From a virus (lineage: Duplodnaviria; Heunggongvirae; Uroviricota; Caudoviricetes), in IMG/VR virus record IMGVR_UViG_2695420456_000023, positions 1 through 29,209 of that record: DNA of 29,209 nt. One strand, 5' to 3'. The notes under the pieces were generated by a model, which ran no database searches, was not told the DNA's origin, and was given only the letters and a program-made list of their open reading frames with translations. Of the stretch, positions 4,748 through 26,798 are shown in pieces (position 1 is the first letter of the stretch; each line of letters starts with the position of its first letter). Made by a program: the position numbers and the translations under genes.

Positions 4748-7700
4748 GCGTCGTATCCCCCCTGATCGCTGTAGTTACTCCTGGCTTTTGCCTTCAGCCT
4801 GCGTTCACGTTCATCAAGCTGGCGGGCCACCTCCCGTGCAATATCCTGCGCACTTTGTCCTGGCTGCGTCTGGATGATGATCTGCGTTGGTGCCTCAATC
4901 TGGTAAACGGGCGGCACAGTGACTGCGCGACTCACCATCGCTTCACCGCCTTTCGCGGGAAGCGCCAAAGGATGCAACGGTGGAAACTCTGCTGGCGCGG
5001 CAGCAACGCCCATCATTCCGGCGACAACCGCAGCCAGTGCAGCGGTATTTCTCCGGCTGGTCACGTTTGCCGGGCCATTGACAATTTCAGGCCCGTTTTC
5101 ACCGACAATGCCAAACTGCCCGCGCGGGATATAGCCGCCGCGGTCATACATCCCCGCAAAGCCATATCCCCATGATGGAAAACCACCCGATGACATCATC
5201 ACTTTACCGTCTGCATTCACCGTCACAGGTTGCTGACGCGTCACGCTTTCCGGCAGTTTTGCCTTTTCGGCCTCTTTACTGACAATGCCAAGTTTCTCCA
5301 GTAACCAGGAAACACCGGATTTCAGGGAGTCCAGCGGATGCATAACCATATTCAGCCCTTCCGCCAGTGCCTCCCCGAATCGTCGCCCCATTGCCGCTGC
5401 GCTCTGCAGTTCGGCAGAGGTCGACTTAACGGGCGTCAGCAGATCAGTAAACCAGCCCCACAGCGCCTGTACTTTATCGCCAATCCACTGAAATACAGGC
5501 TTAAGTGGTTCGAATGCTGCACTGACGGGACCAGCCGCCGCTTTGAATCCTTCCACCACGCCACCGAGAAATGCGGTGATGGGTTGCCAGTATTTCCAGA
5601 CAACCAGCGCCACGCCCGCCAGTGCAGTAACCACAAGACCTATCGGACTGAGCAGAGCACCTAACAGACCAGATATGGCATACAGGGCAACGCGCAGCAT
5701 CGCCAGTGGACCAGATGCCAGTACTCGCAGCACCGTGCCTGCGGCGGCCAGTCCACCGCGCAGTACCGCCAGAGGATTCATAAACATCACAGCAACAGCA
5801 CGTAAACCGGATAATCCAGACCGCAAAAGTGCAACCGGCGCACCTGCTACAGTTTTCAGGACATTTCCCGTCAGTGATGCCGTGCGGCGCAAAGACGACA
5901 ACGGCGCAGTAAGTAAACCTGCGGCGTTGCCCGATGAAGCAAGCCCGCGTCGCAGCAGTGCCAGTGGTGCGCCAGCCAGCCAGGATAACGCGCTGCTGGT
6001 TCGAGTTACTGCTGCCGTAACGGAAGATAACGTTTTGATACCCAACACAGAGAATCCCAGACGGATCACTGCCAGCGGCCCCAGCACTGCAGCCAGCGCC
6101 ACCGCTAAGGTGCCGAGGCCGACGGTAACCGCAGCCACAACAGCCGATGCTTTCATCAGTGTGCCTGTCAGTTCCGGGTTAGCTTCCACCCAGCGACGCA
6201 ACGCCCCCGTGACGCTTTTCACCGTGTACAGAATATCCATCAGCGGCTGGCGCAGCGTTTCGCCCAGGCTGCTGAAGGTGTTCTGCGCTCCGGTTTTGAC
6301 CAGCAACCACTGCGCAGAAAGTGAATCCTTGTTAATGTCGGATTCTTTCTGCATGGAGCCGAGCGCATCATTGCCCGCTGTCAGTTTTAACTGACGCTGC
6401 AGTTCCGGCAGGTTGTTTGCCAGTTTCGCCGCGTCATCGCCAAACTCTTTACCAAACAACATAGTCATGGCAGACAGGCGCTTGTCCTGCGGCAGCGCGT
6501 TTACCTTCTCCAGCACGCGCTGGATGGTTCCCATCGCATCCTTCGTCATCTGCTTTTCAATCACTTCAGGATTGAGTTTCAGCAGATTCATCCCTTCAAA
6601 GAAACTCTTGCTTTGCATGGTGGCAATGGACAATTCACGCACCATCGCGTTTGCTGCACTGGCTGCAACCTCTGGCGCAGCGCCCAGTGTCAGGAAGGTG
6701 GAACCCAGCGCCGCCGCTTTACGATAATCCAGACGGTCAGCCACACCGCCCAGACGTTGCATCACATCAATGATGTCTGCCCCTTTCGACATGGCGTTAT
6801 CATCCAGATAGTTCAGCGCATCACCGAGCTGTTCAATATTGCGGGTGGGGATTTTGTAGAGCTGGGCGATTTTCCCCAGACTTTCTGACAGTTCATCCGC
6901 TGGCAGCTCAAAGGCTGTTGCCGCCTTTGCTGCCGTACTGGCGAAGGCCAGCAGGTCACGTTTCTGATCTTCCCAGCTGTCGTCAGGGTTTGCGACGTTC
7001 ATGCGCGCACCACCTTCAACCAGTGCAGCGAAGTCCACCGCACCGTTTTCCATCGGCAACTGTTCGCTGGCAGCCTTGATGGCATCCTGCATTTCATAAA
7101 AACGTGCAGTGCGGTTGCCATTATCGTCACGCAGACCATTGACCTGCTTTGCCACACCTTTCATGGCATCTTCCATGCTGGTATAGCTTTTTACTGCCGC
7201 CATCACTGGCGCACCCATTGCCAGCCCTGCAGCCGTGGTGGTGGCTCCGGCACCTGCAATACGATCACGCACCTCCAGCGAACGGGCATAACTGGCACGC
7301 GCTGCATTCATCCTGCGCTGAGCTTCCCCCAGTCGCTTCAGCCGCGCCTCCTGTTTCGAAAGTTCCTGGTTATAACGTGATGTTTCACGGGCTAAACGGG
7401 CAGTTGCTCCCGCATCGTCTTTCGCAGAAATTCCCGCCCGGTACAGTTCAGCACGCACAAGCGCCGTCTGCTGCTGCAGCTTTTTCTGGCGTTCTTCCAG
7501 GCGCTGAACAGCCAGCCGTTGACGGCCCAGAGCAACAACCTGACGTTGCGAAGGCGGCCCCATCGCTCCCAGTTCCTGACTGAGCAAATTTGCACGCTGG
7601 CGGGCATAGTTCAGCCTGTCGCCTAATTTCTGATTTTCTGCCTGCAGCTTTCGGAAGCTGTCCAGACTGCTCCCGGCCTGATCAAGCTGCTTTATTGCAT

Positions 7701-7821
7701 CGCGGGATTTTTTGACAGCAGCAGCCAGTTCTCTTGAACTGGCCTGCGCAGATCGAAATGGACGGGTGAGCTTGTCAACCGCATTAAGAATGACCTGCAG
7801 ACGCAGGTTGTTATCACTCAT
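4744..7821 (-). CDS. T: tail tape measure protein
   Basis: 1025-aa ORF with a coiled-coil N-terminal part and Ala/Gly/Leu-rich internal repeats (several PLA(L/V)LR.GL units); it follows E/E' as in P2. Confidence 0.9.
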   Translation of the reverse strand: MSDNNLRLQVILNAVDKLTRPFRSAQASSRELAAAVKKSRDAIKQLDQAGSSLDSFRKLQAENQKLGDRLNYARQRANLLSQELGAMGPPSQRQVVALGRQRLAVQRLEERQKKLQQQTALVRAELYRAGISAKDDAGATARLARETSRYNQELSKQEARLKRLGEAQRRMNAARASYARSLEVRDRIAGAGATTTAAGLAMGAPVMAAVKSYTSMEDAMKGVAKQVNGLRDDNGNRTARFYEMQDAIKAASEQLPMENGAVDFAALVEGGARMNVANPDDSWEDQKRDLLAFASTAAKAATAFELPADELSESLGKIAQLYKIPTRNIEQLGDALNYLDDNAMSKGADIIDVMQRLGGVADRLDYRKAAALGSTFLTLGAAPEVAASAANAMVRELSIATMQSKSFFEGMNLLKLNPEVIEKQMTKDAMGTIQRVLEKVNALPQDKRLSAMTMLFGKEFGDDAAKLANNLPELQRQLKLTAGNDALGSMQKESDINKDSLSAQWLLVKTGAQNTFSSLGETLRQPLMDILYTVKSVTGALRRWVEANPELTGTLMKASAVVAAVTVGLGTLAVALAAVLGPLAVIRLGFSVLGIKTLSSVTAAVTRTSSALSWLAGAPLALLRRGLASSGNAAGLLTAPLSSLRRTASLTGNVLKTVAGAPVALLRSGLSGLRAVAVMFMNPLAVLRGGLAAAGTVLRVLASGPLAMLRVALYAISGLLGALLSPIGLVVTALAGVALVVWKYWQPITAFLGGVVEGFKAAAGPVSAAFEPLKPVFQWIGDKVQALWGWFTDLLTPVKSTSAELQSAAAMGRRFGEALAEGLNMVMHPLDSLKSGVSWLLEKLGIVSKEAEKAKLPESVTRQQPVTVNADGKVMMSSGGFPSWGYGFAGMYDRGGYIPRGQFGIVGENGPEIVNGPANVTSRRNTAALAAVVAGMMGVAAAPAEFPPLHPLALPAKGGEAMVSRAVTVPPVYQIEAPTQIIIQTQPGQSAQDIAREVARQLDERERRLKAKARSNYSDQGGYDA

Positions 7822-8250
7822 CGTTGGCCCCGCTTCTCTGAATCGCTTTATACCGCCATTCCAGCACTTCGGTCAGCGGCATAACGTCAGTAACGGATGG
7901 CGGCCAGTGAAAAATGGTGGCGATATCTGCCACCAGATCGTCAACCGTCAGGCTGTCGGTAAACCGGCAAGCACCGACTTCTTCAACAAAAAAGTGACAA
8001 CCTCAACCGACATGGCTGTGAGATCTGCCGGGTCCATCTCTGCAATTTCCTGTGCAGTCAGTGCCGGACTGGAGATGCGGGGGATCACGGTCATCATCGC
8101 GTTTACATCCATATCCATAATGGCCTGCAGGCGTGTACCGCGCAGCGCACCGGACTGCGGTTTACGCAGCACAATTTCGGTGATTTCTGTTTTACCGCGC
8201 TTGATGGGGGTATCCAGTTGAATGGTCTTTTCAGTCTGCTTATCGCTCAT
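7814..8250 (-). CDS. E': tail assembly chaperone E+E' (programmed -1 frameshift product)
   Basis: Slippery site T TTT TTG in the E frame (minus strand, 7993->7987). My hand translation of the -1 frame continues about 57 codons to a TGA at 7814-7816, which overlaps the ATG of T (7819-7821). Confidence 0.7.
7948..8250 (-). CDS. E: tail assembly chaperone E
   Basis: 100-aa ORF immediately upstream of T, containing the slippery heptamer near its 3' end. Confidence 0.85.
   Translation of the reverse strand: MSDKQTEKTIQLDTPIKRGKTEITEIVLRKPQSGALRGTRLQAIMDMDVNAMMTVIPRISSPALTAQEIAEMDPADLTAMSVEVVTFLLKKSVLAGLPTA
7987..7993 (-). other. -1 ribosomal frameshift slippery heptamer TTTTTTG
   Basis: X XXY YYZ-type heptamer in the E reading frame (T of ACT, then TTT, TTG); the plus strand reads caaaaaa. 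Confidence 0.7.
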
Positions 8251-8304
8251 TTTGCTGTCCTGTCAATTGGGTTCTGGCGCGGTATCCCGCGCCGTTCAGA
8301 TATA

Positions 8305-8820
8305 TCAGAGGCCGAGGGCGTTGCGGTGCGCTTCCATCAGGTCCACACCGTCCACAATTTCCACCATGTTGATAAGGTCCACTTCATAGAGCACCTCACC
8401 ATTGATGGTCAGCTTCGCGTAGCTGTTGGTACTGGTCACTTTGGTGGTGTTGCTTTCGCCCGTCTTCCACTCGCCGGAATCCACTTCTTTGTGACGTCCA
8501 CGCACGACAAGCTCCACGGCCTGCACTTCCCCGGTATCGTCACGCTGAATAGAGCCGGTAAAGCGCAGCTGGATGCCATCCACCGTGGCTTTACCCATCT
8601 GTTTAAACAGCAGCAATTCAGTACCACCAATGGAAAATTCTGTGTCCAGCGCACTGTCATCAAGCCCCAGATCCACATCCACCGCACCCGGCATTCCGCC
8701 GCCGCGATACTTCTCATATTTGCGGGTAAATTTCGGCAGCGTCAGCGACTCAACGATCCCCTGCCAGTTGTTCCCGTCGTTAAACAGGTTCAGGTGTTTT
8801 AATTTGCGTGGTAAAGCCAT
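8305..8820 (-). CDS. FII: tail tube protein FII
   Basis: 171 aa (P2 FII is about 172 aa), directly downstream of the sheath gene. Confidence 0.9.
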   Translation of the reverse strand: MALPRKLKHLNLFNDGNNWQGIVESLTLPKFTRKYEKYRGGGMPGAVDVDLGLDDSALDTEFSIGGTELLLFKQMGKATVDGIQLRFTGSIQRDDTGEVQAVELVVRGRHKEVDSGEWKTGESNTTKVTSTNSYAKLTINGEVLYEVDLINMVEIVDGVDLMEAHRNALGL

Positions 8821-8829
8821 GTTGTCCCC

Positions 8830-10002
8830 TTACGCGCTGACCTGGCTGGCGAAATTCACCAGGTACTGATCGGTGATGCGCTGACGCAGCATCAGGTTTT
8901 CAAGTGGCGGCACTGGCGTGTAGTCGTAGTCGATGGTGAGTTTTCCGGCTTTCAGCGTGTCTTTGTCGTTCACCGACTCATCCAGCCAGCAATCACCACC
9001 AATGAGATAGCCCTGACTGACCAGGCTGCGCATTTTGGCGCGGATACCTTCGATAATGTCGCGGGCCAGCGACGGGTTAAGCGGTTTATCCACCGCCCAC
9101 ATGTGTGCTTCTGCCATCGTGTCCATCAGCACCTGCGCCGTGCGGGTGTAGTTTTCGAAGGCAAAGAGCGGGTCATCACTCAGGCAGCGGGAGCCCCAGA
9201 AGCGGAAACCGTCTTTACGCACAAGCGTGGTGACGTCGTTCTGGTTCAGCAGACCTGCATCGGTTGCCGGGTCCTGCAGATCCCAGAACACATCTGCAGA
9301 AATTCCGGTGACACCGTTCACGCCCACGTTGGACAGGCTTTTGTGCCATCCGGTCTGCTCGTCAATTTTGGCGCGCAGACCAAGCGCACGGGCGGTGGCA
9401 TATGCTGTTGCTTCGGCATTCAGCACCGTGTCCCAGCCAGTAAAGTCAGGCCAGATCAGCATCCCTTCGCGCTGGCTGAAGTTTTCGCGGTAAGTGATCG
9501 CCTCCTGCACTGTCTTGCAGCCATACGCTGACAGGTAAGCAAATCCACGCAGGCTTTGCGCCACGCTCAGCAACTCAGTAGCTACCGCCTTGGTGTCGTG
9601 GCCTGGCACGCCGAGAATGCGCGGTTTAACGCCGAGCTGTGACTGGGCAGATAACAGGGCTTTCATACCTGTTTTTTTACCTTCAGCAGTCACTGCGCCG
9701 ATGATATTGGTCGTGGTTTCGTCTTCCGTTTCACCCTGCGGCACACGCACAACAATGGTCACGGGTTTTGCCTGGTCAGCGATGGCATCCAGCGAACGGG
9801 CCAGAGTACCGGACTCACCCGCTTTACCGCTGGCAGTCAGCACATCAGTGATCAGCACGGGTTTATTAAGAGGAAACATTTTTGCATCGGCATCATCGCC
9901 CGTGCAGACCATACCCACGATGGCGGTGCTCACCGTGGTAATGGATCGGGTGCCTTCGTTGACTTCAACAACGCGCACCCCGTGGTGGTAATCCTGAGCC
10001 AT
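8830..10002 (-). CDS. FI: contractile tail sheath protein FI
   Basis: 390 aa, first gene of the FI-FII-E-T-U-D block; size and position match P2 FI. Confidence 0.9.
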
Positions 10003-10078
10003 AGTGGCGAACCTCCTGATTGGATTAGGCTTCGCCCTATGTTGAAGTGATTGTGCCTGACAAACAGCTAAGCGCAGT

Positions 10079-10096
10079 TGTACCGTTATTCACACA
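10079..10096 (-). promoter_or_regulatory. putative Ogr-dependent late promoter element (P_F-like), TGT-N12-ACA dyad
   Basis: tgtaccgttattcacaca sits about 85 bp upstream of the FI start codon and shares TGTACCG...CACACAAA with the dyad upstream of O. Confidence 0.4.
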
Positions 10097-10144
10097 AAAT
10101 GACGGTATTTGTCTGCTTTCAGGGATAATCAAAATAAAGCTGAT

Positions 10145-10711
10145 TCAGGGAGATTTATTGCTCTTATTGGCCGGAAATTTTCGATAAATGGTAGAAACGC
10201 CTACATCAAAAATCAGTGCAATACGCTGTCTTGATTCTCCGGCCTCGAGTAAACGCCCAATCTGTGCCCACTGTTCGCTGGTCAACTTAGGACGGCGTCC
10301 ACCTACTCTGCCTTTAGCACGAGCTGCAGCCAGCCCCGCCCTGGTACGTTCAACTATCAGTTCGCGTTCCATTTCAGCCAGGGCCCCCATGACATGAAAA
10401 AAGAAACGGCCCATTAGGGTGCTGGTATCAATACTGTCAGTCAGGCTTCGGAAATTCACGCCACGCTGGCGCAGCTCTTCTATCAGCGTAACAAGATGCC
10501 GCATACTGCGCCCCAGTCTGTCCAGCTTCCAGACAACCAGCGTGTCTCCTGCCGATAGTGTCCTGAGCAGCTTTTTCAGCCCCGGTCTGTCGGACTTGGT
10601 GCCACTGATTCTATCCTCAAAAATCCGCTCACATCCCGCACAGTTCAGTGCATTGCGTTGCAAATCGGTGTTCTGGTCATTTGTTGACACGCGTACATAG
10701 CCAATAAGCAT
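10145..10711 (-). CDS. serine DNA invertase, Gin/Pin/Hin/Cin family
   Basis: N-terminus MLIGYVRVSTNDQNTDLQ with the catalytic serine motif, VVWKLDRLGRS, and a C-terminal helix-turn-helix; very close to Gin and Pin as I recall them. The ORF track begins two codons earlier at 10717. Confidence 0.9.
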   Translation of the reverse strand: MLIGYVRVSTNDQNTDLQRNALNCAGCERIFEDRISGTKSDRPGLKKLLRTLSAGDTLVVWKLDRLGRSMRHLVTLIEELRQRGVNFRSLTDSIDTSTLMGRFFFHVMGALAEMERELIVERTRAGLAAARAKGRVGGRRPKLTSEQWAQIGRLLEAGESRQRIALIFDVGVSTIYRKFPANKSNKSP

Positions 10712-10777
10712 GATCATCCCCCTGAATAAAAACCGGAGATGATGCCAGTTAGCCGTTATCTCTGCATTTTCATAAAC

Positions 10778-11236
10778 GTTGGTTTGGGAGAAGGTGCTCC
10801 AGCTATTGGCGTTCCGTTCTTCTGGCCCTCCGCTGCAATGCCAAATACTGTAATCGACAGTTGGTCCGGTATGGTGTTTTTGAAGTTCAACGGGGCGAAA
10901 TTTTCTGCCACTGATTACCCTGTGCTGGCGAAAGTGTTTCCTTCACTGGCATTACCTGAAGCCCGCGGTGATTTCATTCGTATCTGGGATGACGGACGAG
11001 GTGCAGATGGTGGTCGCGAATTATTAAGCTGGCAGGCTGCTACAAACTTTTCTCAGTTTGCCGGGAATATAGGCGGAGGTGCGGGACACACAATTAACTT
11101 TCATGATGGCATCGCCGGAAATCAGCCAGGATTTTCACGATTTAATTTCACCAGTAACTCTGTGGGTGATGGTGTGAATTTTGTTGCTGTCAGACCGCGA
11201 AATATCGCATTTAACTTTCTGGTGAGGGCTAAATAA
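10778..11236 (+). CDS. alternative tail fibre C-terminal segment (currently not fused to H)
   Basis: ORF is in frame through the crossover site (NVGLGEG...) and would be joined to the constant part of H after inversion. The ATG at 10739 reported by the ORF track is probably not a real start. Confidence 0.65.
   Translation, partial: VGLGEGAPAIGVPFFWPSAAMPNTVIDSWSGMVFLKFNGAKFSATDYPVLAKVFPSLALPEARGDFIRIWDDGRGADGGRELLSWQAATNFSQFAGNIGGGAGHTINFHDGIAGNQPGFSRFNFTSNSVGDGVNFVAVRPRNIAFNFLVRAK
10779..10793. repeat. inversion crossover site, left (gix/hix-like)
   Basis: ttggtttgggagaag; its exact reverse complement is at 12627-12641. Lies about 65 bp from the invertase start codon. Confidence 0.7.
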
Positions 11237-11829
11237 TGAGACCTGTTTTTGATGAAAATGGGCTGGCTACAGTGCCGGGCGATATGCGTTGTTTTTATTA
11301 TGATGCAGTAACGTATGAATATACTGGCTGGTCTGATGAATATATTAATACTGGCGTAAGTATGCCCGCCTGTTCCACTGGTATTGACCCTGGCGAAAAC
11401 ATTCCGGGGAAAGTGGCAGTATTTACGGGGAAGAGATGGAGCCATGAAGAAGACCATCGCAATGAGACTGTTTACTCAACAGAAAATGGCGCAGCTGTTA
11501 CAGTGGATTATATCGGTGCCATCAAAGACGGTTATGTCACGCTTTCACCGTTAACGCCATACGATAAATGGGATGGTGAGAAATGGGTGACGGATACCGA
11601 GGCACAGCATAGCGCCGCAGTAGACGCGGCAGAAGCACAGCGTCAGTCACTAATTGATACTGCAATGGCTTCCATTAATCTGATTCAACTGAAATTGCAG
11701 GCCGGGAGGAAGCTGACGCAGACAGAAACCACCCGACTAAACGCTGTGCTGGATTACATTGACGCGGTGACGGCAACGGATACCAGCACAGCGCCGGACG
11801 TCATCTGGCCTGGACTGCCGGAGGCGTAG
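11236..11829 (+). CDS. tail fibre assembly protein (alternative, partner of 10778-11236)
   Basis: 197 aa starting at the stop of the alternative fibre segment; C-terminal ...TSTAPDVIWPGLPEA parallels the other assembly protein (...TSTAPDIEWPTPPAVQAR). Confidence 0.8.
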   Translation: MRPVFDENGLATVPGDMRCFYYDAVTYEYTGWSDEYINTGVSMPACSTGIDPGENIPGKVAVFTGKRWSHEEDHRNETVYSTENGAAVTVDYIGAIKDGYVTLSPLTPYDKWDGEKWVTDTEAQHSAAVDAAEAQRQSLIDTAMASINLIQLKLQAGRKLTQTETTRLNAVLDYIDAVTATDTSTAPDVIWPGLPEA

Positions 11830-12244
11830 GCCATTCAATATCGGGTGCTGTTGAAGTATCAACACGCATCAGCAGCACACGGTATTTCTTCCATTGGGTG
11901 AGAGTTGAAGTTTCTTCATCTGTTGCGATATCAGCATCAACAGCATCCTGACGCCAGGATATTTCACTGTCAGCTTTTGCACGAAATGTGGCTTTCATGT
12001 TTTCTGCATCTGATATTTTCTGTTCTGGTGAAAGCGGCGGCTCATCAACCCATGCAAGGGCCCCTGAAACCATTCCCAGCATTTTTCCTGTTGGCTTATT
12101 TCCCCCATTAAATCTGACAGCATCCTCATCGCTGATTTCAATACCATCCTGCGGCCATGTCCCCTCCTTGATATAACTTTCGTATAGCGCTGCGTTGTAG
12201 ATTGCATTTTCGGAAGGGCTGTAAACACTTTTAACTTTATTCAT
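11801..12244 (-). CDS. G: tail fibre assembly protein (active orientation)
   Basis: 147 aa, immediately downstream of H; converges on the alternative assembly gene and overlaps its 3' end by 29 bp. Confidence 0.85.
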   Translation of the reverse strand: MNKVKSVYSPSENAIYNAALYESYIKEGTWPQDGIEISDEDAVRFNGGNKPTGKMLGMVSGALAWVDEPPLSPEQKISDAENMKATFRAKADSEISWRQDAVDADIATDEETSTLTQWKKYRVLLMRVDTSTAPDIEWPTPPAVQAR

Positions 12245-12248
12245 TCTG

Positions 12249-13688
12249 TTATCTCCCTTTCGCTATATAGCAAAGATTAAACCCACCTCTACCTGACATA
12301 CGGGCTGTAAAATCCGTTCTTGAAGTACCAGGTGAGCTAACTCCATAAGCAGGCATGGTTGTTGGAGAAAGCAGAGACTCTTGGATATCTGCCATTGTCA
12401 GTGTAATTGATTCGACCCGCGCGGGGAAAGGTAGCGGGAAAACAACATTCGTCCCTGTCTGTCCAACGGGGAAACCGAAAATACCCCATTGTGTAATTAC
12501 CCCATCCGGCCCCTTACTCCATCCAGATTTAGGATTCGGCCAGTCTGCTGCTCCAGAGTGCCCCGTTGTAAAACTACTCATATCTGGTACTTGCCCGGTA
12601 TCCGTTCCGACGTTCCTCGTTGCCGCTTCTCCCAAACCAAGGTATGTGAGAAGACCAGCTACATCCTTTCCACTCAAATTGGTAAGCGTATTGTCCAGCG
12701 GTTGTTTACCTGACAGCGCATTAAGCATTGTCGTGGCAAAGTTCGGATCATTCCCCAGTGCCGCCGCCAGTTCGTTCAGTGTATCCAGTGCAGCAGGTGC
12801 AGAACCCACCATTCCTGCAATCGCCGATTTCACAAAAGCCGTAGTGGCAATCTGTGTATTGTTGACCGACTGCGCCGCCGTGGGGGCTGTTGGCGTTCCG
12901 GTGAGTGCCGGACTCGACAACGGTGCTTTTAGTGCCAGCGCATTGTTAATGGTGGTACTGAAATTCGGATCATTGTTAATGGCTGCGGCTATTTCTTTCA
13001 GCGTGTCCAGCATGGCTGGCGCACCATTAATAAGGGCCGTCAGTGCCGCCTGTACAAACGCAGTGGTCGCAACCTGCGTGGTATTATTCCCCGCCGCTGG
13101 CGTTGGCGCTTTGGGGGTTCCGGTAAATGTCGGGCTGGCTTTTGGCGCGTACTGTGAATGCGGGTCCGGTGCGGCAAGATGTTTTGCCATCTGATCATCC
13201 GCGTAAACCTTCAGCTCCAGTGCCTTGTCATCCACATACTTGCGGGTTGCCAGCACTACGGCAGGGTCGATTTTCAGGGTGATATTGTCCGTGCTGCTGG
13301 TAATCAGCACCATGCGCACGGTCTGGGTGCGCCCGCTGCCTTCAGCCAGTTGCGGCTTGTAGCTTTCCGGGCAGTTGCCCACGGCAATCAATGCCCCGGA
13401 TTCATCAAACAGGCCCACTTCACGTATCCACCAACCACCCTCGTTTTCAGGGATCACCTGTTCAGCAATAATCTGGCTGCTGTTCTGCGGGTCGATATAG
13501 AGCATATTCAGCGCAGCCCGGCGTTTCTCATTTACCAGTGCAGTCTGCTTTGCGTCTGGCGTCGGCAATGTTCCGCCACCATCGCCCACCGCCATATGGG
13601 TAATTTTTAGCGGCACACCGAGCGCGGCGGCGCTGGCAAGTTTCGCAGCGCCAATATCCGTCAGCAGGGTATAAAATTTTGTGCTCAT
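12249..13688 (-). CDS. H: tail fibre protein H (constant N-terminal part plus currently fused variable C-terminus)
   Basis: 479 aa; N-terminus MSTKFYTLLTDIGAAKLA... is P2 H-like; the crossover site lies at 12627-12641 within the ORF. Confidence 0.9.
   Translation of the reverse strand: MSTKFYTLLTDIGAAKLASAAALGVPLKITHMAVGDGGGTLPTPDAKQTALVNEKRRAALNMLYIDPQNSSQIIAEQVIPENEGGWWIREVGLFDESGALIAVGNCPESYKPQLAEGSGRTQTVRMVLITSSTDNITLKIDPAVVLATRKYVDDKALELKVYADDQMAKHLAAPDPHSQYAPKASPTFTGTPKAPTPAAGNNTTQVATTAFVQAALTALINGAPAMLDTLKEIAAAINNDPNFSTTINNALALKAPLSSPALTGTPTAPTAAQSVNNTQIATTAFVKSAIAGMVGSAPAALDTLNELAAALGNDPNFATTMLNALSGKQPLDNTLTNLSGKDVAGLLTYLGLGEAATRNVGTDTGQVPDMSSFTTGHSGAADWPNPKSGWSKGPDGVITQWGIFGFPVGQTGTNVVFPLPFPARVESITLTMADIQESLLSPTTMPAYGVSSPGTSRTDFTARMSGRGGFNLCYIAKGR
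12627..12641. repeat. inversion crossover site, right (gix/hix-like)
   Basis: cttctcccaaaccaa, perfect 15-bp inverted copy of 10779-10793; located inside tail fibre gene H at the codons for GLGE. Confidence 0.7.
12700..13120 (-). repeat. intragenic tandem repeat in H (two units of about 65 aa)
   Basis: The protein shows ...NNTTQVATTAFVQAAL...AMLDTLKEIAAAINNDPNFSTTINNALALKAPL followed by ...NNTQIATTAFVKSAIA...AALDTLNELAAALGNDPNFATTMLNALSGKQPL. DNA coordinates are approximate. Confidence 0.45.
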
Positions 13689-14290
13689 GGATTCACTCTC
13701 ATTGTGTCAATAACATGGACCGCCCCGCCTTCATGCGCGGTGCCGCCAGAAATAATTGTTTCGTTGATATACGGATAGATCGTGATTTCTTCGCCAAGAT
13801 AGCTGGCGGCCCCAACCCAATGCGGACCGCTGGTCTGCAGATTGATGGACATGCCGATCATGTGACGGCTACATGGTTTGGCATCGCTTATCAGCCGCTC
13901 AAGTTCCAGATAGGTATCTTCAGTGATGCCCTGATCCTGCACGCCAATGTCCAGGCGAAACGTGCCCGGTGTTTCTCCGGTCTGCCACCACTCAATAATG
14001 CGTATCAGGAAGCCGAACGGCTCCACCACCCGCCGCACGGCACTTGTGGTTCCTTTATGCTGATGAATATAAAAAGCATCCTTCACCACCTGGCGCTTGA
14101 CGCTTTCTGTCCAGCCCTCGTCCCAGCGATCCACAGAGAACGCCCAGGCGAGATAAGGCAGGAAACTGACCGGACAGGTTGCCGGATTCCACAAGTCACG
14201 AAGCGGTACCTGCAGATCAGAAATCCCGCTGCAGGTTTGCGCCAGTCGGCGCTCCAGTGGTGTTGAACCCGGTGGCAGCAGACTATTCAT
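13685..14290 (-). CDS. I: baseplate protein I
   Basis: 201 aa between H and J, overlapping both by a few bp; P2 gpI position. Confidence 0.8.
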   Translation of the reverse strand: MNSLLPPGSTPLERRLAQTCSGISDLQVPLRDLWNPATCPVSFLPYLAWAFSVDRWDEGWTESVKRQVVKDAFYIHQHKGTTSAVRRVVEPFGFLIRIIEWWQTGETPGTFRLDIGVQDQGITEDTYLELERLISDAKPCSRHMIGMSINLQTSGPHWVGAASYLGEEITIYPYINETIISGGTAHEGGAVHVIDTMRVNP

Positions 14291-15191
14291 CCGTTCCTCC
14301 GTTGGTTACGCTCCACTGCGTACATGATGCCGCCTGTGTTTTGTTCAGGACCACATCCGCCAGAGGAGAAGCCAGCTCCACACGCTGCACCCCCTCAACA
14401 TGCAGGGCGGCAAAGATGGCGCTACGGCGAATATCCCGACCAAGACGCGTCTGACTGGCGATGTACTTCTGCAGGCTGGCTTTTGCCGCTGCCATTACCG
14501 GCTCTGCTTCCGGTCCAGGATAGAGAAAAATGGTGGCTTCCACGCGATACGGGATGATTTCTGCGCTGCGAACCGTAAGACGGTCAGCCACCGGGCGGAC
14601 GTTCTCACTGTTCAGAGCTTTTTCCACCACGTCCAGCAGGTCTTTTTCTGCAGTTCCATCGCCTTCGCGGCTAAGGACAGTCAGCACCACCTCTGCAGGT
14701 GCCGGGCTGGTTGCACTGGCATCCGCCACCCGACCGTCGGCGCTTCGGGCATGAAATTCATAAGCTGCAGTTGGCCCCGCAACAGAAAGCCCTTCAAAGG
14801 CTGCAGGCACACGCAGGCGCAACGCTTCATCGCTTTCCATCACAGCTGCAACGGGCGGCACAGCATCATTATCAGCAGGCGTCACCGTCAGGCGTGTCAC
14901 GTTGTAGTTGGCAGCGAGCTGGTCAAGATCGCCGCCCATCGCGTAAGCCACCATCACCGCCTGCGCGGCTTCGTTAATGCGCTGGCGCAGAAGCAACTCA
15001 CGGTAAGCGTTCTCCTGCAACAATTTAGTGGCGGGTTCAGATTCCAGTTCCAGCGTGCGGATCACTGCTTCCTGCTCATCTTTCGGATGAAGCGCCACAA
15101 ATTCTGCCTTGCGTTCGGCAAGCAGCGTCTCAAAGTCCGGCACATCCACAATCTGCGGTGCAGGCAACTGCGAAAGGTCAATCACTGCCAT
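14283..15191 (-). CDS. J: baseplate protein J
   Basis: Starting at the internal Met (MAVIDLSQLPAP...) gives 302 aa, matching P2 gpJ in size; the ORF track extends to 15230. Confidence 0.85.
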   Translation of the reverse strand: MAVIDLSQLPAPQIVDVPDFETLLAERKAEFVALHPKDEQEAVIRTLELESEPATKLLQENAYRELLLRQRINEAAQAVMVAYAMGGDLDQLAANYNVTRLTVTPADNDAVPPVAAVMESDEALRLRVPAAFEGLSVAGPTAAYEFHARSADGRVADASATSPAPAEVVLTVLSREGDGTAEKDLLDVVEKALNSENVRPVADRLTVRSAEIIPYRVEATIFLYPGPEAEPVMAAAKASLQKYIASQTRLGRDIRRSAIFAALHVEGVQRVELASPLADVVLNKTQAASCTQWSVTNGGTDE

Positions 15192-15537
15192 TCTCTGCTC
15201 CTGTTGATACGGAAAGGGACACAGGCACACCGTTATTCCGCCGCCCGGTCAGCTCCACCACCATTGAACCGTCAAAATTGCTGTTGATGGTGATGGAATC
15301 CAGCGTCAACCGTGGCTCCCAGCGACTCAGCGCCACATACACTGCCGACATGACCTGCAGGCGTAATGCCGGATTTTGTGGCTGATCTATCAGTGCCGAC
15401 AGCAGGGAACCATATTCCCGGCGGGCAATACGGCTACCCTGCGGTGTCAGCAGAATGTCCCGCACCGACTGGCGCAGATGATCAATATCAGTAATGACTT
15501 TGCCGCTGGTATTGTTCATCCCGCTATAAAGCGTCAT
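15178..15537 (-). CDS. W: baseplate protein W
   Basis: 119 aa between V and J; size and position of P2 gpW. Confidence 0.85.
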   Translation of the reverse strand: MTLYSGMNNTSGKVITDIDHLRQSVRDILLTPQGSRIARREYGSLLSALIDQPQNPALRLQVMSAVYVALSRWEPRLTLDSITINSNFDGSMVVELTGRRNNGVPVSLSVSTGAENGSD

Positions 15538-16112
15538 ACCGGGCCTCCGGTTGTATCGCCGCCTTTCAGGACGCCAGTATACTGATGCGCATCAACCACG
15601 ATCCCGTTAGAACTCATCGCTCCGCCGCCCTGGGTAACGCCACCATTGATCACCACTTCGCTGTTAATGCGCGTGCGGTTAGCCTCCAGTACAAACTCAC
15701 TGGTTTTCATGGTGATGTTGTCAGCAGCCTCAATGACCATTGATTTGATGCCCCTGACATACCAGCGCCCGGTGGCGGGTTCGTATTCAAACCAGCCACC
15801 GTCAGGATGTTCTGTCACGCAGGCGTCCGCCGACGTCGACGGTGGTGCGAACTGATTCGAATAGATGGCGGGCAGCGCAAACGCGGTTTCCAGATTGCCG
15901 CCCATGCTCAGCACCACCACCTGCTCATCTGGCGACGGGCACCACCATGTACGGGCACCACCGGCGCGTAGCGTCAGCCAGTTAATCCAGTTGGTTTCAA
16001 GCTCGCCTACCTTCACCCGGCACAGCCATTTGTTCCGGTCCACTTCGGTCACAATGCCGGTGCGGATCAGATTGGTGATAAGGCGCATAATTTCTGTGAG
16101 TTGTGCGTTCAT
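15534..16112 (-). CDS. V: baseplate spike/hub protein V
   Basis: N-terminal ...NAQLTEIMRLITNLIRTGIVTEVD resembles the P2 gpV N-terminus as I recall it. Start chosen at the second Met; the ORF track starts at 16127. Confidence 0.85.
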   Translation of the reverse strand: MNAQLTEIMRLITNLIRTGIVTEVDRNKWLCRVKVGELETNWINWLTLRAGGARTWWCPSPDEQVVVLSMGGNLETAFALPAIYSNQFAPPSTSADACVTEHPDGGWFEYEPATGRWYVRGIKSMVIEAADNITMKTSEFVLEANRTRINSEVVINGGVTQGGGAMSSNGIVVDAHQYTGVLKGGDTTGGPV

Positions 16113-16144
16113 GGTTGCAGTTTGCATGAAATCAAAAGAAAATA

Positions 16145-18013
16145 GTGATTTTCAAATTGTATGAAGGGTCTTACAATCCAATGAATTACAATGAAGAGCT
16201 AACCTCATATCTTAATTATTTAGTGGATCTTGAAAAATCCCCTAATTTCGCAGTAATGATTGACGGCGAATGGGGAAGCGGGAAAACATGGTTTGTCCGT
16301 AAATTAATGAATGAAGAATCACTAAAAGGGAAAGTTAAGCCATTAATGATCTCATTATATGGAATAAAATCCACCGAACAAATTGACGAAATAATTTTCA
16401 AGCAAATGCATCCCTTCCTTTCATCTAAAGGCATGTTGCTTGCTGGCACACTAACTAAGGCACTAATTAAAGGCACACTTAAGATTGATTTAAGTGATTC
16501 ATTCGTTACAAGTGTAGAGGGCTCCCCAGAACTACCCAACGTAAGCATTAAAGACTTTTACTACTCACCAGAAAACACCATATTGATATTTGATGATCTT
16601 GAACGCTGCGAATTAGATTGGAATTCTATATTTGGTTATATAAATAATTTCGTTGAAGAAAAAGAATGCAAGGTTTTGATTATCGCCAATGAGAGAGAAA
16701 TATTAAACCCCGCTAGAAATAAAAATCATGATGGTATTTATTTAGATGCAAAAGAAAAAGTTATAGGTATAACTTTCAAATATCAACCTCAACATTCTCA
16801 CGCCTACGAATATTTTCTAAAAAATATAACTAGCGAACTCAACACCATTCTGAACATAAAAAATATTGAGAGCTTACTCACTCTTTCAGAGTGTAATAAC
16901 ATTAGATTAATTGAAAGGCAAATTTCTTTTTTTGAAAGAATATTCAAAATATTACCAGCACAGTTTCAGCAAAATTCAGCTTTGACACTCAGATTATATC
17001 AATTACATTTTATACTCTATTTTGAATCTAATAAAATAAAACGAACCGTTTCTGACTTGTTAACATATAAAATAGATGATGATAATAAATACACATCCAA
17101 TTTAATTGAAAAATATGGTACAACTTATTTGTCAAATTTAATCTTAGACGAGGATACCTGGATCGATATAATTGACAATCAGAAAATCAATCAAGAAAAA
17201 ATAATATCTGAATTAATAACATTCGTCAGTGTTTCTAATAAAACAATTGAGCCATGGACACAACTTTGGAATTATGATCGATTAAAATACACAGAATTTG
17301 AGGAAAATTACAATTCAACACTTCATACGCTTATTAATTTTGAAATATTGAACGAGCATGTTCTTAAGCATATTTACGGATTATTACTTCATTTATCCAG
17401 AGAACATATAAAACCCATCAACGAACACTATTTAACAAACTTAGCCCACTCTGCTGTTGATATTTTAGCAGAAAAAGGAATGATACAAACTAGTTATGAA
17501 ATTTTTGATGAAGACATTAAGGATGAGCGATGGAGAGGATTAACTTTTCATTGCAAAGAAACTAGGGAATTCAAGGAGCTTGTTAATTACATAGAACAAA
17601 AGAAAAATGTATTAATTGCATATCAACTTAGCCAAGACGCTCAAAAGATATTCAAATTAATACAGTCCGGAAATCATGAATATTACGCACATCTAAATTT
17701 CAACAACAAAGATATTTATTCATTTCACGACAAACCAGTTCTTTATTTTGGTGATGCTGAACAACTAACAAAAATACTGATAGACTCAACCGAGATGCAT
17801 TTCTTTGGCTATGCTATAAAAAACCGATACAACAACACCCCTTATCTAAAAGAGCTTTCTGCAGAGCGTTTTTTCCACCGCGAGCTAATTAGAAAGCTAA
17901 TTGAAAAGAAAACTCAAATAAACTCAAATATATTATCATTACAAATCGATGAGCTCATAAATGATTGTTTAACTCCCGCAATAGATAAATTAAAGCAAAG
18001 CATTGAAAATTAA
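16145..18013 (+). CDS. KAP-family P-loop NTPase (cargo gene; candidate anti-phage / abortive-infection protein)
   Basis: Walker A GEWGSGKT and Walker B-like LIFDDLER are hallmarks of KAP NTPases, the family that includes F-plasmid PifA. Strongly AT-rich compared with flanking phage genes, opposite strand to S and V. Start is GTG at 16145 or ATG at 16181. Confidence 0.8.
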   Translation: MIFKLYEGSYNPMNYNEELTSYLNYLVDLEKSPNFAVMIDGEWGSGKTWFVRKLMNEESLKGKVKPLMISLYGIKSTEQIDEIIFKQMHPFLSSKGMLLAGTLTKALIKGTLKIDLSDSFVTSVEGSPELPNVSIKDFYYSPENTILIFDDLERCELDWNSIFGYINNFVEEKECKVLIIANEREILNPARNKNHDGIYLDAKEKVIGITFKYQPQHSHAYEYFLKNITSELNTILNIKNIESLLTLSECNNIRLIERQISFFERIFKILPAQFQQNSALTLRLYQLHFILYFESNKIKRTVSDLLTYKIDDDNKYTSNLIEKYGTTYLSNLILDEDTWIDIIDNQKINQEKIISELITFVSVSNKTIEPWTQLWNYDRLKYTEFEENYNSTLHTLINFEILNEHVLKHIYGLLLHLSREHIKPINEHYLTNLAHSAVDILAEKGMIQTSYEIFDEDIKDERWRGLTFHCKETREFKELVNYIEQKKNVLIAYQLSQDAQKIFKLIQSGNHEYYAHLNFNNKDIYSFHDKPVLYFGDAEQLTKILIDSTEMHFFGYAIKNRYNNTPYLKELSAERFFHRELIRKLIEKKTQINSNILSLQIDELINDCLTPAIDKLKQSIEN

Positions 18014-18038
18014 AATAAAGCCCAGATCGCCACTGGGC
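18009..18038 (-). terminator. intrinsic terminator-like hairpin after gene S (minus strand)
   Basis: gcccag-atcgcca-ctgggc hairpin (18020-18038) followed on the minus strand by tttatttta; it overlaps the stop codon of the KAP gene. Confidence 0.4.
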
Positions 18039-18053
18039 AACAATATACGCAAG

Positions 18054-18497
18054 TTATGAAATACAATATATCAAAAATCTCTCAACTTCTTTTTTAATAG
18101 GCTCATTAATACCTAGCAAGCATCGTCTGGAATAATGAACTATCGGCCCACGTTTACTGACACGATCACGCAGTCCATAATGGTGAACACGGGCAATGCG
18201 CTGCACCTTACCTTCAAACTGCACGCTGGCAGAATCGGCGCTGGCGGCAGTTTTCAGGTATTTTGTGGTGCGCAGCTTCGCAAACATCTGACGTTTGATG
18301 CGGCCTTTTTTACTGCGCGCTGTTACCCGTCGCGGCTCATAACTACTGCCATCTGGATTGCGCTGCATCCTGATGTTTTGCTGCTGTGTCCGGCGCAGCT
18401 CTTGTGCCAGTTGGCGCATCATGCGACTTCTTGCAGCTGGCTCCAGATTCGCCAGTAAGGCACTCAGCCAGTCGTCCACTTTCTGCAATTCAGCCAC
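18054..18497 (-). CDS. S: tail completion protein S
   Basis: 147 aa downstream of R in P2 order; the last 85 bp or so (18054-18140) are AT-rich like the adjacent cargo. Confidence 0.85.
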   Translation of the reverse strand: MAELQKVDDWLSALLANLEPAARSRMMRQLAQELRRTQQQNIRMQRNPDGSSYEPRRVTARSKKGRIKRQMFAKLRTTKYLKTAASADSASVQFEGKVQRIARVHHYGLRDRVSKRGPIVHYSRRCLLGINEPIKKEVERFLIYCIS

Positions 18498-24000: not shown

Positions 24001-25767
24001 ATGAACACCACACTGACACCCGCAGATCTCGATCCCCGTCGGCAGGCCATGCTGCTGTACTTTCAGGGATACCGCGTAGCCCGCATTGCTGAAATGCTGG
24101 GCGAGAAAGTTGCAACCGTTCACAGCTGGAAAAAACGCGACAAGTGGGGTGACTATGGGCCGCTGGATCAGATGCAGCTCACCACCGCCGCACGCTACTG
24201 CCAGCTCATTATGAAGGAGCACAAAGAAGGGAAAGATTTCAAAGAGATTGACCTGCTGGCGCGCCAGTCGGAGCGCCATGCGCGGATCGGCAAGTTTAAC
24301 AATGGCGGCAACGAAGCCGACTTAAACCCTAACGTCGCCAACCGCAACAAAGGCCCGCGCCGTCAGCCGGAAAAGAACGTTTTCACCGATGAACAGATTG
24401 AGAAGTTGGAAGAAATCTTCCATTCCTCCATGTTCAACTACCAGCGCCACTGGTGGGAAGCCGGAAAAACCAACCGCATCCGCAACCTGCTGAAGTCACG
24501 CCAGATCGGCGCGACCTTCTATTTTGCCCGTGAAGCCCTGATTGACGCCCTGCTAACCGGGCGTAACCAGATTTTCCTTTCCGCCAGCAAGGCTCAGGCC
24601 CACGTCTTTAAGCAGTACATCATCGACTTCGCCAAAGAAGTGGAGGTGGAGCTGAAAGGCGATCCGATGGTGCTTCCTAACGGGGCCACGCTGTACTTCC
24701 TCGGCACCAATGCCCGCACGGCCCAGAGTTACCACGGCAACCTGTATCTGGATGAATATTTCTGGATACCGAAATTCCAGGAGCTGCGCAAAGTGGCTTC
24801 CGGTATGGCTATTCACAAAAAATGGCGACAAACCTATTTTTCCACGCCATCCAGCCTGACACACAGTGCTTATCCGTTCTGGTCCGGTGCGCTGTTCAAC
24901 CGAGGGCGCAACAAAGCCGATAAGGTGGACATCGACCTGTCCCACAGCAATCTGGCCCCCGGCCTGCTGTGCGCAGACGGGCAGTACCGCCAGATAGTCA
25001 CTGTGGAAGATGCGGTGCGCGGCGGCTGTAACCTGTTCGACCTCGACCAGTTGCGCATGGAGTACAGCCCGGACGAATACCAGAACCTGCTGATGTGTGA
25101 GTTCGTGGACGATCTCGCGTCTGTGTTCCCACTCAGCGAGCTGCAGGCGTGCATGGTGGACAGTTGGGAAGTCTGGACCGACTTTCATGCACTGGCCCTG
25201 CGCCCGTTTGGCTGGCGCGAAGTGTGGATCGGATATGACCCGGCGAAAGGTACGCAGAACGGCGACAGCGCCGGATGCGTGGTGGTGGCGCCGCCAGCCG
25301 TGCCGGGCGGTAAGTTCCGCATTCTTGAGCGTCACCAGTGGCGCGGAATGGACTTCCGCGCCCAGGCTGACGCCATCAAAAAACTGACCGAACAGTACAA
25401 CGTGACCTATATCGGTATCGACTCAACCGGCGTTGGTCACGGGGTTTACGAGAACGTGAAAGCGTTTTTTCCTGCCGTCCGGGAGTTTGTCTACAACCCC
25501 AACGTTAAAAACGCCCTGGTACTCAAGGCCTACGACATTATCAGCCACCGCCGTCTGGAGTTTGACGCCGGACACACCGACATAGCGCAGTCCTTTATGG
25601 CAATCCGTCGCGCCACCACCGCCAGTGGCAACCGCCCGACCTATGAAGCCAGCCGCAGCGAAGAAGCCAGCCACGCCGATCTGGCCTGGGCAACGATGCA
25701 CGCACTGTTTAACGAACCGCTGCAGGGCGAATCCGCCAATACCAGCAATATTGTGGAGATTTTTTGA
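24001..25767 (+). CDS. P: terminase large (ATPase) subunit P
   Basis: 588 aa, divergent from O and overlapping the start of Q by 4 bp; P2 gpP position. Confidence 0.9.
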   Translation: MNTTLTPADLDPRRQAMLLYFQGYRVARIAEMLGEKVATVHSWKKRDKWGDYGPLDQMQLTTAARYCQLIMKEHKEGKDFKEIDLLARQSERHARIGKFNNGGNEADLNPNVANRNKGPRRQPEKNVFTDEQIEKLEEIFHSSMFNYQRHWWEAGKTNRIRNLLKSRQIGATFYFAREALIDALLTGRNQIFLSASKAQAHVFKQYIIDFAKEVEVELKGDPMVLPNGATLYFLGTNARTAQSYHGNLYLDEYFWIPKFQELRKVASGMAIHKKWRQTYFSTPSSLTHSAYPFWSGALFNRGRNKADKVDIDLSHSNLAPGLLCADGQYRQIVTVEDAVRGGCNLFDLDQLRMEYSPDEYQNLLMCEFVDDLASVFPLSELQACMVDSWEVWTDFHALALRPFGWREVWIGYDPAKGTQNGDSAGCVVVAPPAVPGGKFRILERHQWRGMDFRAQADAIKKLTEQYNVTYIGIDSTGVGHGVYENVKAFFPAVREFVYNPNVKNALVLKAYDIISHRRLEFDAGHTDIAQSFMAIRRATTASGNRPTYEASRSEEASHADLAWATMHALFNEPLQGESANTSNIVEIF

Positions 25768-26798
25768 TGGGAAAGAGTAAGAAGAACCGCGCTGCGGCGA
25801 CGAAACAGATCCAGCTTAAAAGTCAAACTACAGCCGAAGCATTCAGCTTCGGCGATCCCGTTCCTGTTCTGGACCGCCGAGAACTGCTGGATTATGTGGA
25901 ATGCGTACAGATGGACCGTTGGTATGAGCCGCCCGTCAGCTTTGACGGACTGGCGCGCACCTTCCGCGCCGCCGTGCATCACAGTTCCCCGATTGCAGTA
26001 AAGTGCAACATTCTGACCAGTACCTATATCCCTCATCCGCTGCTCAGCCAGCAGGCTTTTTCGCGTTTTGTGCAGGACTATCTGGTATTTGGTAACGCCT
26101 ACCTGGAGAAACGCACGAACCGATTCGGTGAAGTTATCGCTCTTGAGCCTGCGCTTGCAAAATACACCCGACGCGGATTAGACCTGGATACCTACTGGTT
26201 TATGCAATACGGTATGACAACCCAGCCGTATCAGTTCACGAAAGGCAGCATTTTTCATCTGATGGAACCGGATATTAATCAGGAGATCTACGGCCTGCCC
26301 GGCTATCTTTCTGCCATCCCATCCGCTTTGCTCAACGAGTCCGCCACGCTGTTCCGCCGCAAGTATTACATTAACGGCAGTCATGCAGGCTTCATCATGT
26401 ACATGACCGATGCGGCGCAGAACCAGGAGGATGTGAACAACCTCCGCAACGCGATGAAAAGCGCCAAAGGTCCAGGCAATTTCCGCAACCTGTTTATGTA
26501 CTCACCTAATGGCAAAAAGGATGGGCTTCAGATCATTCCTCTGTCAGAAGTTGCGGCGAAGGATGAGTTTCTGAATATCAAAAATGTCAGCCGCGATGAC
26601 ATGATGGCTGCGCACCGCGTACCACCGCAAATGATGGGGATTATACCTAATAATGTTGGAGGATTTGGGGATGTGGAAAAGGCTAGCTGTGTGTTTGTGA
26701 GGAATGAGCTAATACCATTACAGGAAAGAATAAAAGGATTAAATAGTTGGTCTAATGAGAATATAATCCAATTCAAACCGTATACACTTGAATTCTAA
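25764..26798 (+). CDS. Q: portal protein Q
   Basis: 344 aa downstream of P; the final 160 bp or so of the gene are AT-rich. Confidence 0.9.
   Translation: MMGKSKKNRAAATKQIQLKSQTTAEAFSFGDPVPVLDRRELLDYVECVQMDRWYEPPVSFDGLARTFRAAVHHSSPIAVKCNILTSTYIPHPLLSQQAFSRFVQDYLVFGNAYLEKRTNRFGEVIALEPALAKYTRRGLDLDTYWFMQYGMTTQPYQFTKGSIFHLMEPDINQEIYGLPGYLSAIPSALLNESATLFRRKYYINGSHAGFIMYMTDAAQNQEDVNNLRNAMKSAKGPGNFRNLFMYSPNGKKDGLQIIPLSEVAAKDEFLNIKNVSRDDMMAAHRVPPQMMGIIPNNVGGFGDVEKASCVFVRNELIPLQERIKGLNSWSNENIIQFKPYTLEF

Follow-up and report, generated by a model that had tools for sequence, protein, structure and literature searches.

A KAP-family NTPase gene in the S/V (orf30) cargo slot of a P2-like prophage as a candidate single-gene anti-phage defence

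The S/V interval and its single gene

The window analysed here, the whole 29,209-nucleotide stretch of IMG/VR virus record IMGVR_UViG_2695420456_000023 (Caudoviricetes), is a P2-like (186-type) prophage integrated beside ybjL, with a near-twin in the prophage of Escherichia coli APEC IMT5155 (99.9% identity over the region of interest). Between its tail genes S and V lies a gene for a KAP-family NTPase, which we consider a credible candidate for a single-gene anti-phage defence. The V-to-S gap holds a single long open reading frame (ORF; 16145–18013, plus strand, 622 aa counted from GTG 16145), unaccompanied and on the strand opposite to the late operons, and GC content over 16001–18000 drops to 0.27–0.39 (about 30% for the gene) versus 0.55–0.59 in the flanking DNA. 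With the flanking genes identified as those for gpV and gpS, this agrees with a preliminary description of the DNA, which had noted a single AT-rich gene on the opposite strand between S and V. The length of 622 aa given there holds for the ORF from its GTG codon, whereas the span given for the gene, 16113–18053, is the entire V-to-S intergenic interval, and the protein itself probably has 610 aa.

The true start of the gene is likely ATG 16181 rather than GTG 16145, because RefSeq annotates the 99.9% identical IMT5155 copy from that ATG, because the 622-aa ORF is matched by PADLOC and Pfam from residues 14–19 onwards and the family is conserved from residue 4 of the 610-aa form, and because the GTG-extended ORF would overlap the activator dyad of the late promoter pV (16158–16175; Table 1). 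That the ORF arose by chance is contradicted by its length, since at about 30% GC (about 8% stops among random codons) at least 610 open codons would occur with a probability of about 1e-22 by our own calculation, and by the 528 homologues of its product.

The cargo gene lies outside both late operons, with the terminator of the O operon on one side and the pV activator site on the other. On the S side, the hairpin at 18020–18038, which has a 6-bp stem with five GC pairs followed by TTTATTTT on the minus strand, scores as a terminator on that strand only, and therefore terminates the O operon (R-S) and not primarily the cargo gene. The earlier suggestion that a hairpin here marks an operon boundary was thus correct in substance, although its position is not 18009–18038. 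The layout is equivalent in the P2 record, where a terminator (9397–9433) lies between S and Orf30. On the V side, the TGT-N12-ACA dyad is kept at equal distance from the V start in the intact P2-like phage L009, in Cartapus, in SEN8 and in one empty junction, and P2 shows matching geometry (pV activator site 10239–10266, V start 10308). From established knowledge of P2 late promoters together with the P2 annotation, we take this dyad to be an Ogr-type site.

The variable module starts about 40 nt inside S (window 18054–18095), the last 12–15 S codons belonging to it. In an alignment of 11 junctions with different cargo, the S tails diverge past a conserved LLG(V/I)N, every type of cargo having a version of its own, which implies that gpS can accept a replaced C-terminal tail. 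In empty junctions the S stop codon is followed by 2 nt and then directly by the pV dyad. A common 'occupied-type' S tail with terminator, acting as a shared recombination flank, was also considered and rejected, since each of the 11 junctions has its own S tail.

Table 1. Coordinates of the S/V interval, of the domains and motifs of the KAP gene, and of genes in the second cargo region (residue numbers refer to the 610-aa form)
Feature	Position in window	Strand	Basis or remarks
gpV baseplate spike gene, left flank	15534..16112	-	Pfam Phage_base_V; TIGR01644 1.4e-63; start ATG 16112 conserved (MNAQ…)
TGT-N12-ACA dyad, probable Ogr/activator site of late promoter pV	16158..16175	-	about 55 nt upstream of V start codon
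KAP-family NTPase gene, 610 aa + stop	16181..18013	+	ORF; RefSeq start; Pfam; PADLOC PDC-S49
N-terminal NTPase module, residues 1-235, AAA+/STAND-like fold	16181..16885	+	
Walker A GEWGSGKT, residues 29-36	16265..16288	+	G29, W31, G32, G34, K35 invariant in 49 homologues
Walker A-Walker B insert, residues 76-130, Gly/Lys-rich, semi-hydrophobic (…LSSKGMLLAGTLTKALIKGTLKIDL…)	16406..16570	+	conservation, hydropathy
Walker B FDDLER, residues 137-142	16589..16606	+	F137, D138, D139, E141, R142 invariant; aligns with PifA VMDDLDR
C-terminal all-helical region, residues 236-610, conserved across family	16886..18010	+	
Rho-independent terminator of late O operon (…R-S), between stop codons of S and cargo gene	18020..18038	-	terminator scan
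gpS tail completion gene, right flank	18054..18497	-	Pfam Phage_tail_S; TIGR01635 4e-33
422-aa P-loop protein gene, candidate PDC-S59	26847-28115	-	PADLOC 4.8e-72
DUF4145-type gene, running past the window end	28520-29209	+	weak PD-T7-4 match, 2.4e-4

The cargo protein and its relatives

The gene encodes a P-loop NTPase of the KAP family in which the catalytic motifs are intact, the NTPase fold is AAA+/STAND-like and the C-terminal region is helical and conserved. Residues 19–240 of the 622-aa ORF matched Pfam KAP_NTPase (PF07693) with a score of 60 bits, the cut-off being 20 (E 2.9e-16); this domain is present in 120/120 of the homologues listed, and the motifs GEWGSGKT and FDDLER, from which the preliminary description had assigned the protein to this family, proved invariant in 49 members. 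Walker A conforms to the pattern GxxGxGK[ST]. The Walker B context ILIFDDLER, of the hhhhDDL(D/E)R type, is likewise invariant in the family alignment, and so, in the 49 homologues, are E171, K193, N240 and R242, as well as W359, L362, P519, R549 and Y550 in the C-terminal region. Spacing between Walker A and Walker B is constant at 98–108 aa across the family, and the insert that occupies it lies in the block that ranked first of those scored in mean conservation (0.64) and that includes the 19-residue windows of greatest hydrophobicity. In structure comparisons the folds nearest to the NTPase were RdrA, Apaf-1, Cdc6/ORC, plant NLRs and CED-4, at TM-scores of about 0.25, the alignment therefore being confined to the NTPase core; sequence profiles revealed no relatives of solved structure at E ≤1 and no enzyme fold was detected in the C-terminal region (about 375 aa).

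All three PADLOC models of the candidate defence family PDC-S49 matched the protein end to end (PDLC05029, 1.8e-134; PDLC05031, 1.1e-132; PDLC05030, 1.1e-74), the best match pairing residues 14–618 of the 622-aa ORF with model positions 3–617 of 619; NCBIfam has no model for it. The PDC models were built on genes located inside BREX, DISARM or type I restriction–modification loci (Payne et al., bioRxiv 10.1101/2024.01.29.577857), and this embedding provides context evidence for defence that does not depend on the phage site. The cargo gene shares the single-gene architecture of PDC-S49, but the copy in the window sits in a P2-like tail-gene junction and not in such a locus.

PifA of the F plasmid is the founding bacterial KAP protein and excludes T7. 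That the cargo protein is a true PifA orthologue, conferring F-type exclusion and aborting T7-like infection upon a gp1.2 or gp10 trigger, would accord with the KAP_NTPase domain, the GxWGSGKT and DDLxR motifs and the absence of transmembrane helices that the two proteins share (PMC13001434 for PifA). Yet, although GAWGSGKT and VMDDLDR of PifA align with GEWGSGKT and FDDLER of the cargo protein, BLASTP aligns no more than a 25-residue stretch at Walker A (E 0.006) and part of Walker B, and the PADLOC PifA model, which PifA itself matches at 2.9e-290, gave no match to the cargo protein at E ≤1. Moreover, the two differ in length (741 versus 610 aa) and have unrelated C-terminal regions, and no pifC-like gene lies beside the cargo gene, whereas in F pifC is directly upstream of the P-loop gene. 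Orthology with PifA was rejected on the PADLOC and BLASTP evidence and appears to us very improbable. The label 'PifA-like' in the preliminary description is therefore apt at the level of the superfamily (domain and motifs) but does not extend to the PifA model, to homology beyond the motifs or to a pifC neighbour.

Many KAP proteins have transmembrane helices attached to, or inserted in, the NTPase domain. PifA, which lacks them, nonetheless acts as a single-gene anti-phage protein that causes membrane depolarisation and nucleotide leakage (PMC13001434). EF_KAP, also a single-gene defence, has a transmembrane helix within its KAP domain and requires Walker B and a C-terminal region of unknown function (PMC13552941), and Reve, a single KAP gene from P4 hotspots, protects against several phage families (PMC13586616). 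Both EF_KAP and Reve are carried on mobile elements and were shown by experiment to block phages, the cargo protein being a candidate on a mobile element, and like it they are encoded by single genes and combine a KAP NTPase with a C-terminal region of about 320–375 aa without known fold. They differ from it in other respects: EF_KAP has transmembrane helices whereas none are predicted in the cargo protein, and enterococcal KAP genes show similarity to it in the NTPase only (about 28% over residues 23–214). Reve, compared by description only, is missed by PADLOC; because PADLOC does recognise the cargo protein, the two probably belong to different subfamilies.

Among immune NTPases, those of the STAND/AAA+ type (Avs-type proteins, Apaf-1, NLRs and RdrA of RADAR) have the NTPase fold closest to that of the cargo protein, whose helical C-terminal region occupies the position of their sensor domain. 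STAND proteins sense phage proteins by C-terminal repeats (PMC13001434). Immune NTPases of this type have a tripartite layout of effector domain, NOD-type NTPase and C-terminal repeat sensor; in the cargo protein, no N-terminal effector domain and no TPR, LRR or WD40 array in the C-terminal region could be recognised.

The S/V junction as a cargo site of P2-like phages

The preliminary description took the S/V junction for a cargo site not described before, and in this it was mistaken. In the P2 record itself, the interval separating the O-operon terminator from the pV activator site contains a nonessential gene, Orf30, on the other strand; orf30 is listed with tin/old and Z/fun as the three usual places for acquired genes in P2-like phages (Lynch et al. 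2010, PMC3091744), and phage R18C carries another gene, of 741 bp, in the orf30 position (PMC6823313). The P2 slot and that of the window agree in position, antisense orientation, foreign base composition and variable occupancy, but Orf30 is an unrelated 261-aa protein, apparently membrane-associated and without Pfam match, where the window has a KAP NTPase. The papers on defence hotspots from 2022–2024 that we consulted cover the tin/old and Z/fun sites, one of them adding a site beside the CI repressor gene, and do not name the S/V slot. A 2026 survey reports extra hotspots 'within the tail genes' and 'downstream of GpL' (PMC13586616). The S/V cargo site is already known, then, and its defence content has been little attended to.

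Using gpS as bait, we surveyed 155 loci from a one-genome-per-species collection and the 80 closest IMG/VR contigs, and found the junction to be variably occupied. Both S and V were present at 69 loci of the former collection, 35 of them empty (typically 56 bp) and 34 with inserts of 0.6–4.3 kb. Two of these 34 (L083 and L085) were dropped as artefacts, their V match having been misassigned with J-, I- and H-like genes in between, which leaves 32/67 species-level junctions occupied and 35/67 empty, that is, about half; at the IMG/VR loci, 28/76 were occupied and 48/76 empty. In 54/59 occupied junctions with a called ORF, counted over both collections, the largest cargo ORF runs antisense to S and V. 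Enterobacterial cargo has a GC content of 0.31–0.39 versus 0.47–0.63 in its flanks, the values for the window being about 0.31 and 0.55. Together with six reference cargo genes, the gap ORFs fell into 51 clusters, about 45 of which represent genuine unrelated cargo families, and the S–V spans in deposited phages are 1094, 1663, 2063 and 2769 bp.

These comparative data effectively refute the idea that the cargo gene encodes a morphogenesis or late-function ATPase of the tail gene cluster, for which nothing speaks but its position between two tail genes. It is encoded on the other strand and outside both late operons, flanked by the O-operon terminator and the pV activator site; about half of the related phages lack it, and others have unrelated genes in its place; and homologues occur outside phages, while no deposited phage genome contains a full-length copy, the gene being found in prophages and IMG/VR contigs only.

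Scanned with PADLOC, 12/20 representatives of the junction cargo clusters gave a match. These comprise Septu (PtuA, 1.9e-139; PtuB, 1.1e-72), PARIS (AriA, AriB and a fused AriAB), AbiU, a ThsA/PDC-S25-type SIR2 protein, an ApeA-like protein, a NucC-like PD-(D/E)xK nuclease, PDC-S31, the KAP subfamily PDC-S20 and a weak match to PDC-S66. The SEN8 cargo is PDC-S15. Judged by the annotation of its cargo, the S/V slot is thus a mixed hotspot rich in putative defence genes.

Two junctions of the survey merit separate mention. That of a distant P2-like prophage of Pseudomonas sp. UBA4194 (L061) holds a 478-aa KAP protein gene on the same strand as S and V; its product matches PDC-S20 in PADLOC (7.8e-89), with weaker QatA and PifA matches, and belongs to a subfamily unlike PDC-S49, and KAP NTPases have therefore been recruited to the slot independently. 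In [Erwinia] mediterraneensis (L087), the junction contains a two-gene PARIS system (AriA, AriB) and a further ORF (C43) that, judged by eye, is an IS1-type transposase, which would mean that insertion sequences enter the slot too.

Distribution of the family and a possible role in defence

Proteins of the PDC-S49 family have 600–700 aa, can be aligned over their full length and occur in gamma-proteobacteria, cyanobacteria and other groups; the exact gene of the window is present in 10/5426 complete E. coli genomes. The V/S slot also holds homologues at 60–61% identity, one in L009 (61%) and one in a prophage remnant located by ybjL (L006–L008, about 5900–17200). In this remnant H is truncated and fused to a D fragment, V is split, only a fragment of S is left and R and the head genes are absent, with ogr, I, J, W, CI and the integrase gene present; the KAP gene, of 618 aa, is intact in three independent assemblies. 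Its integrity while the structural genes decayed suggests that it was retained for the benefit of the host. Moreover, the ratio of nonsynonymous to synonymous substitutions (dN/dS) between the L009 and remnant copies is 0.14 at a dS of 0.56, and the ORF is intact in every copy examined. On these substitution patterns, the KAP cargo family is under purifying selection.

The family also moves from one mobile element to another as a single, unaccompanied gene. The window and E. coli PigCaeca_2 share 99.4% identity in the cargo and 99.1% in S but only 90.2% in V, which indicates that the module was transferred between different backbones. In Pseudomonas, family members lie in islands (L168 and L169) with a large serine recombinase, a resolvase and a YagK/YfjJ-type gene, one of which (L168) interrupts a Mg-chelatase/comM-like gene while the other has a DNA methylase and a HigB/HigA-type pair just upstream of the KAP gene. 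Serine recombinases have been used to flag defence cargo (PMC13552941), and these islands fit that practice. Other members occur in cassette-like arrays of small genes in Vibrio cholerae, beside BrnT/BrnA toxin–antitoxin genes in Methylobacter and on a cyanobacterial plasmid. Neighbours differ among the P2 junctions, the remnant, the Pseudomonas islands, the Vibrio arrays and Methylobacter, so that no partner gene is constant.

We think it reasonably probable that the gene is a horizontally acquired single-gene anti-phage defence of the PDC-S49 type, carried as prophage cargo at the orf30 slot. This is argued for by the Pfam KAP match and the full-length PDC-S49 match with invariant Walker and C-terminal residues, by the low dN/dS and the intact gene in a decayed remnant, by the S/V site acting as a defence hotspot elsewhere (Septu, PARIS, AbiU and SIR2), by family members travelling alone in mobile contexts and by other KAP proteins (PifA, EF_KAP and Reve) that defend as single genes. 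Since a KAP match is present and the gene is not found in all P2-like phages, the defence hypothesis put forward in the preliminary description stands, and the match to PDC-S49 at 1.8e-134 makes the gene a credible candidate at the sequence level.

Several points weigh against this reading. A promoter scan for the KAP gene gave 10 predictions versus 9.4 expected from shuffled sequence, and the sole candidate near its start, which would initiate within the start codon, was not convincing; with its 30% GC, moreover, the gene may be silenced or poorly expressed in E. coli. The PDC set consists of 145 computational candidates without experimental proof according to its own authors (Payne et al.), and our literature search found no mention of PDC-S49. 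P2 Orf30 and the commonest (Cartapus-type) cargo have no PADLOC match and no defence annotation, so the slot is not exclusively defensive. Finally, EF_KAP was reported to be non-abortive (PMC13552941), and a PifA-type outcome is therefore not general for KAP proteins.

Base composition typical of xenogeneic DNA, the lack of a convincing promoter in the scan and the rarity of the gene in complete E. coli genomes would all suit a silent or decaying passenger, that is, unexpressed foreign DNA without current function in a recombination-prone slot. This explanation is at odds with an ORF intact in every copy, with invariant catalytic and C-terminal residues, with the substitution ratio given above and with persistence in a remnant whose structural genes have decayed, and we regard it as quite unlikely.

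For prokaryotic KAP proteins, a role as regulators of membrane-associated complexes has been proposed in general terms. The gene could be a prophage 'moron' without defensive function, serving lysogenic conversion, host physiology or such regulation, an alternative that is improbable but has more in its favour than its analogues above: not only do P2 Orf30 and the most frequent cargo type bear no defence annotation, but P2 hotspots also hold toxins and partition systems (PMC9122126), and it has been argued that phage exclusion is perhaps not the primary role of PifA (PMC8594841; PMC13552941). It fits less well with PDC-S49 having been picked up within BREX, DISARM or restriction–modification loci, with family members in serine-recombinase islands and beside toxin–antitoxin and methylase genes, with a slot common to Septu, PARIS and AbiU, or with the phage resistance conferred by three other single-gene KAP proteins.

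If the gene does act in defence, its C-terminal helical region may recognise a product of the infecting phage, and recognition would switch the NTPase; as with STAND proteins and other KAP defence proteins, the switch would probably involve nucleotide-dependent oligomerisation. The most speculative step concerns the output, which might arise from the NTPase module itself because there is no recognisable enzymatic effector. The version we would tentatively prefer, doubtful as it is, has the Walker A–B insert, with its strongly conserved, Gly/Lys-rich and semi-hydrophobic sequence, engage the membrane, with a PifA-like loss of integrity or energy. It is suggested by the block with the insert being the most conserved of those scored and holding the most hydrophobic segment, by the transmembrane helix inside the KAP domain of EF_KAP and by the action of PifA at the membrane without such helices. 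Against it, no transmembrane segment is predicted in the cargo protein (maximum 19-residue Kyte–Doolittle value 0.98), none is found in the Walker A–B interval of any of the 49 homologues (maximum 1.32), and AlphaFold2 confidence is low for residues 82–125, within the insert; the membrane idea therefore has no direct support. Alternatively, the NTPase could consume ATP without restraint, or the protein could neutralise a phage protein directly and leave the cell alive.

A more far-reaching proposal would join these points. The S/V slot would be a third true, under-described defence hotspot of P2-like phages, filled by swapped modules that bring their own S tail and terminator; PDC-S49 would be a new 'effector-less' soluble KAP sensor; and its insert, located where other KAP proteins have transmembrane helices, would be the effector, becoming membrane-bound after the C-terminal domain binds a phage trigger. 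Taken as a whole, this is improbable.

The cargo site has been described before, PDC-S49 is on record as a candidate family and there are earlier examples of KAP proteins defending as single genes; our findings extend known patterns and leave current understanding unchanged. Should protection be shown, PDC-S49 would pass from candidate to validated single-gene defence, a soluble subfamily without transmembrane helices would be added to the small set of defensive KAP NTPases, and a compact system would be at hand for studying how a KAP NTPase without recognisable effector stops infection. The S/V slot, with its Septu, PARIS, AbiU and SIR2-type cargo, is useful for mining further candidates.

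Elsewhere in the window, a second AT-rich cargo region (GC 0.34–0.39) adjoins the portal gene (25764–26798), which is the classical tin/old hotspot. It includes the gene for a P-loop protein matching PDC-S59 (Table 1), and the prophage therefore holds candidate defence genes in two hotspots. L009, too, has a second gene with a KAP_NTPase domain (13855–15386) beside its portal gene, and so carries two KAP proteins in two hotspots. Lastly, a site-specific invertase gene lies on the minus strand at 10145–10717, its IMT5155 counterpart being annotated as a recombinase family protein. It adjoins oppositely oriented tail-fibre and tail-fibre-assembly segments, and the region as a whole (10145–12244) resembles the inversion switches for host range that are usual in P2 and Mu.

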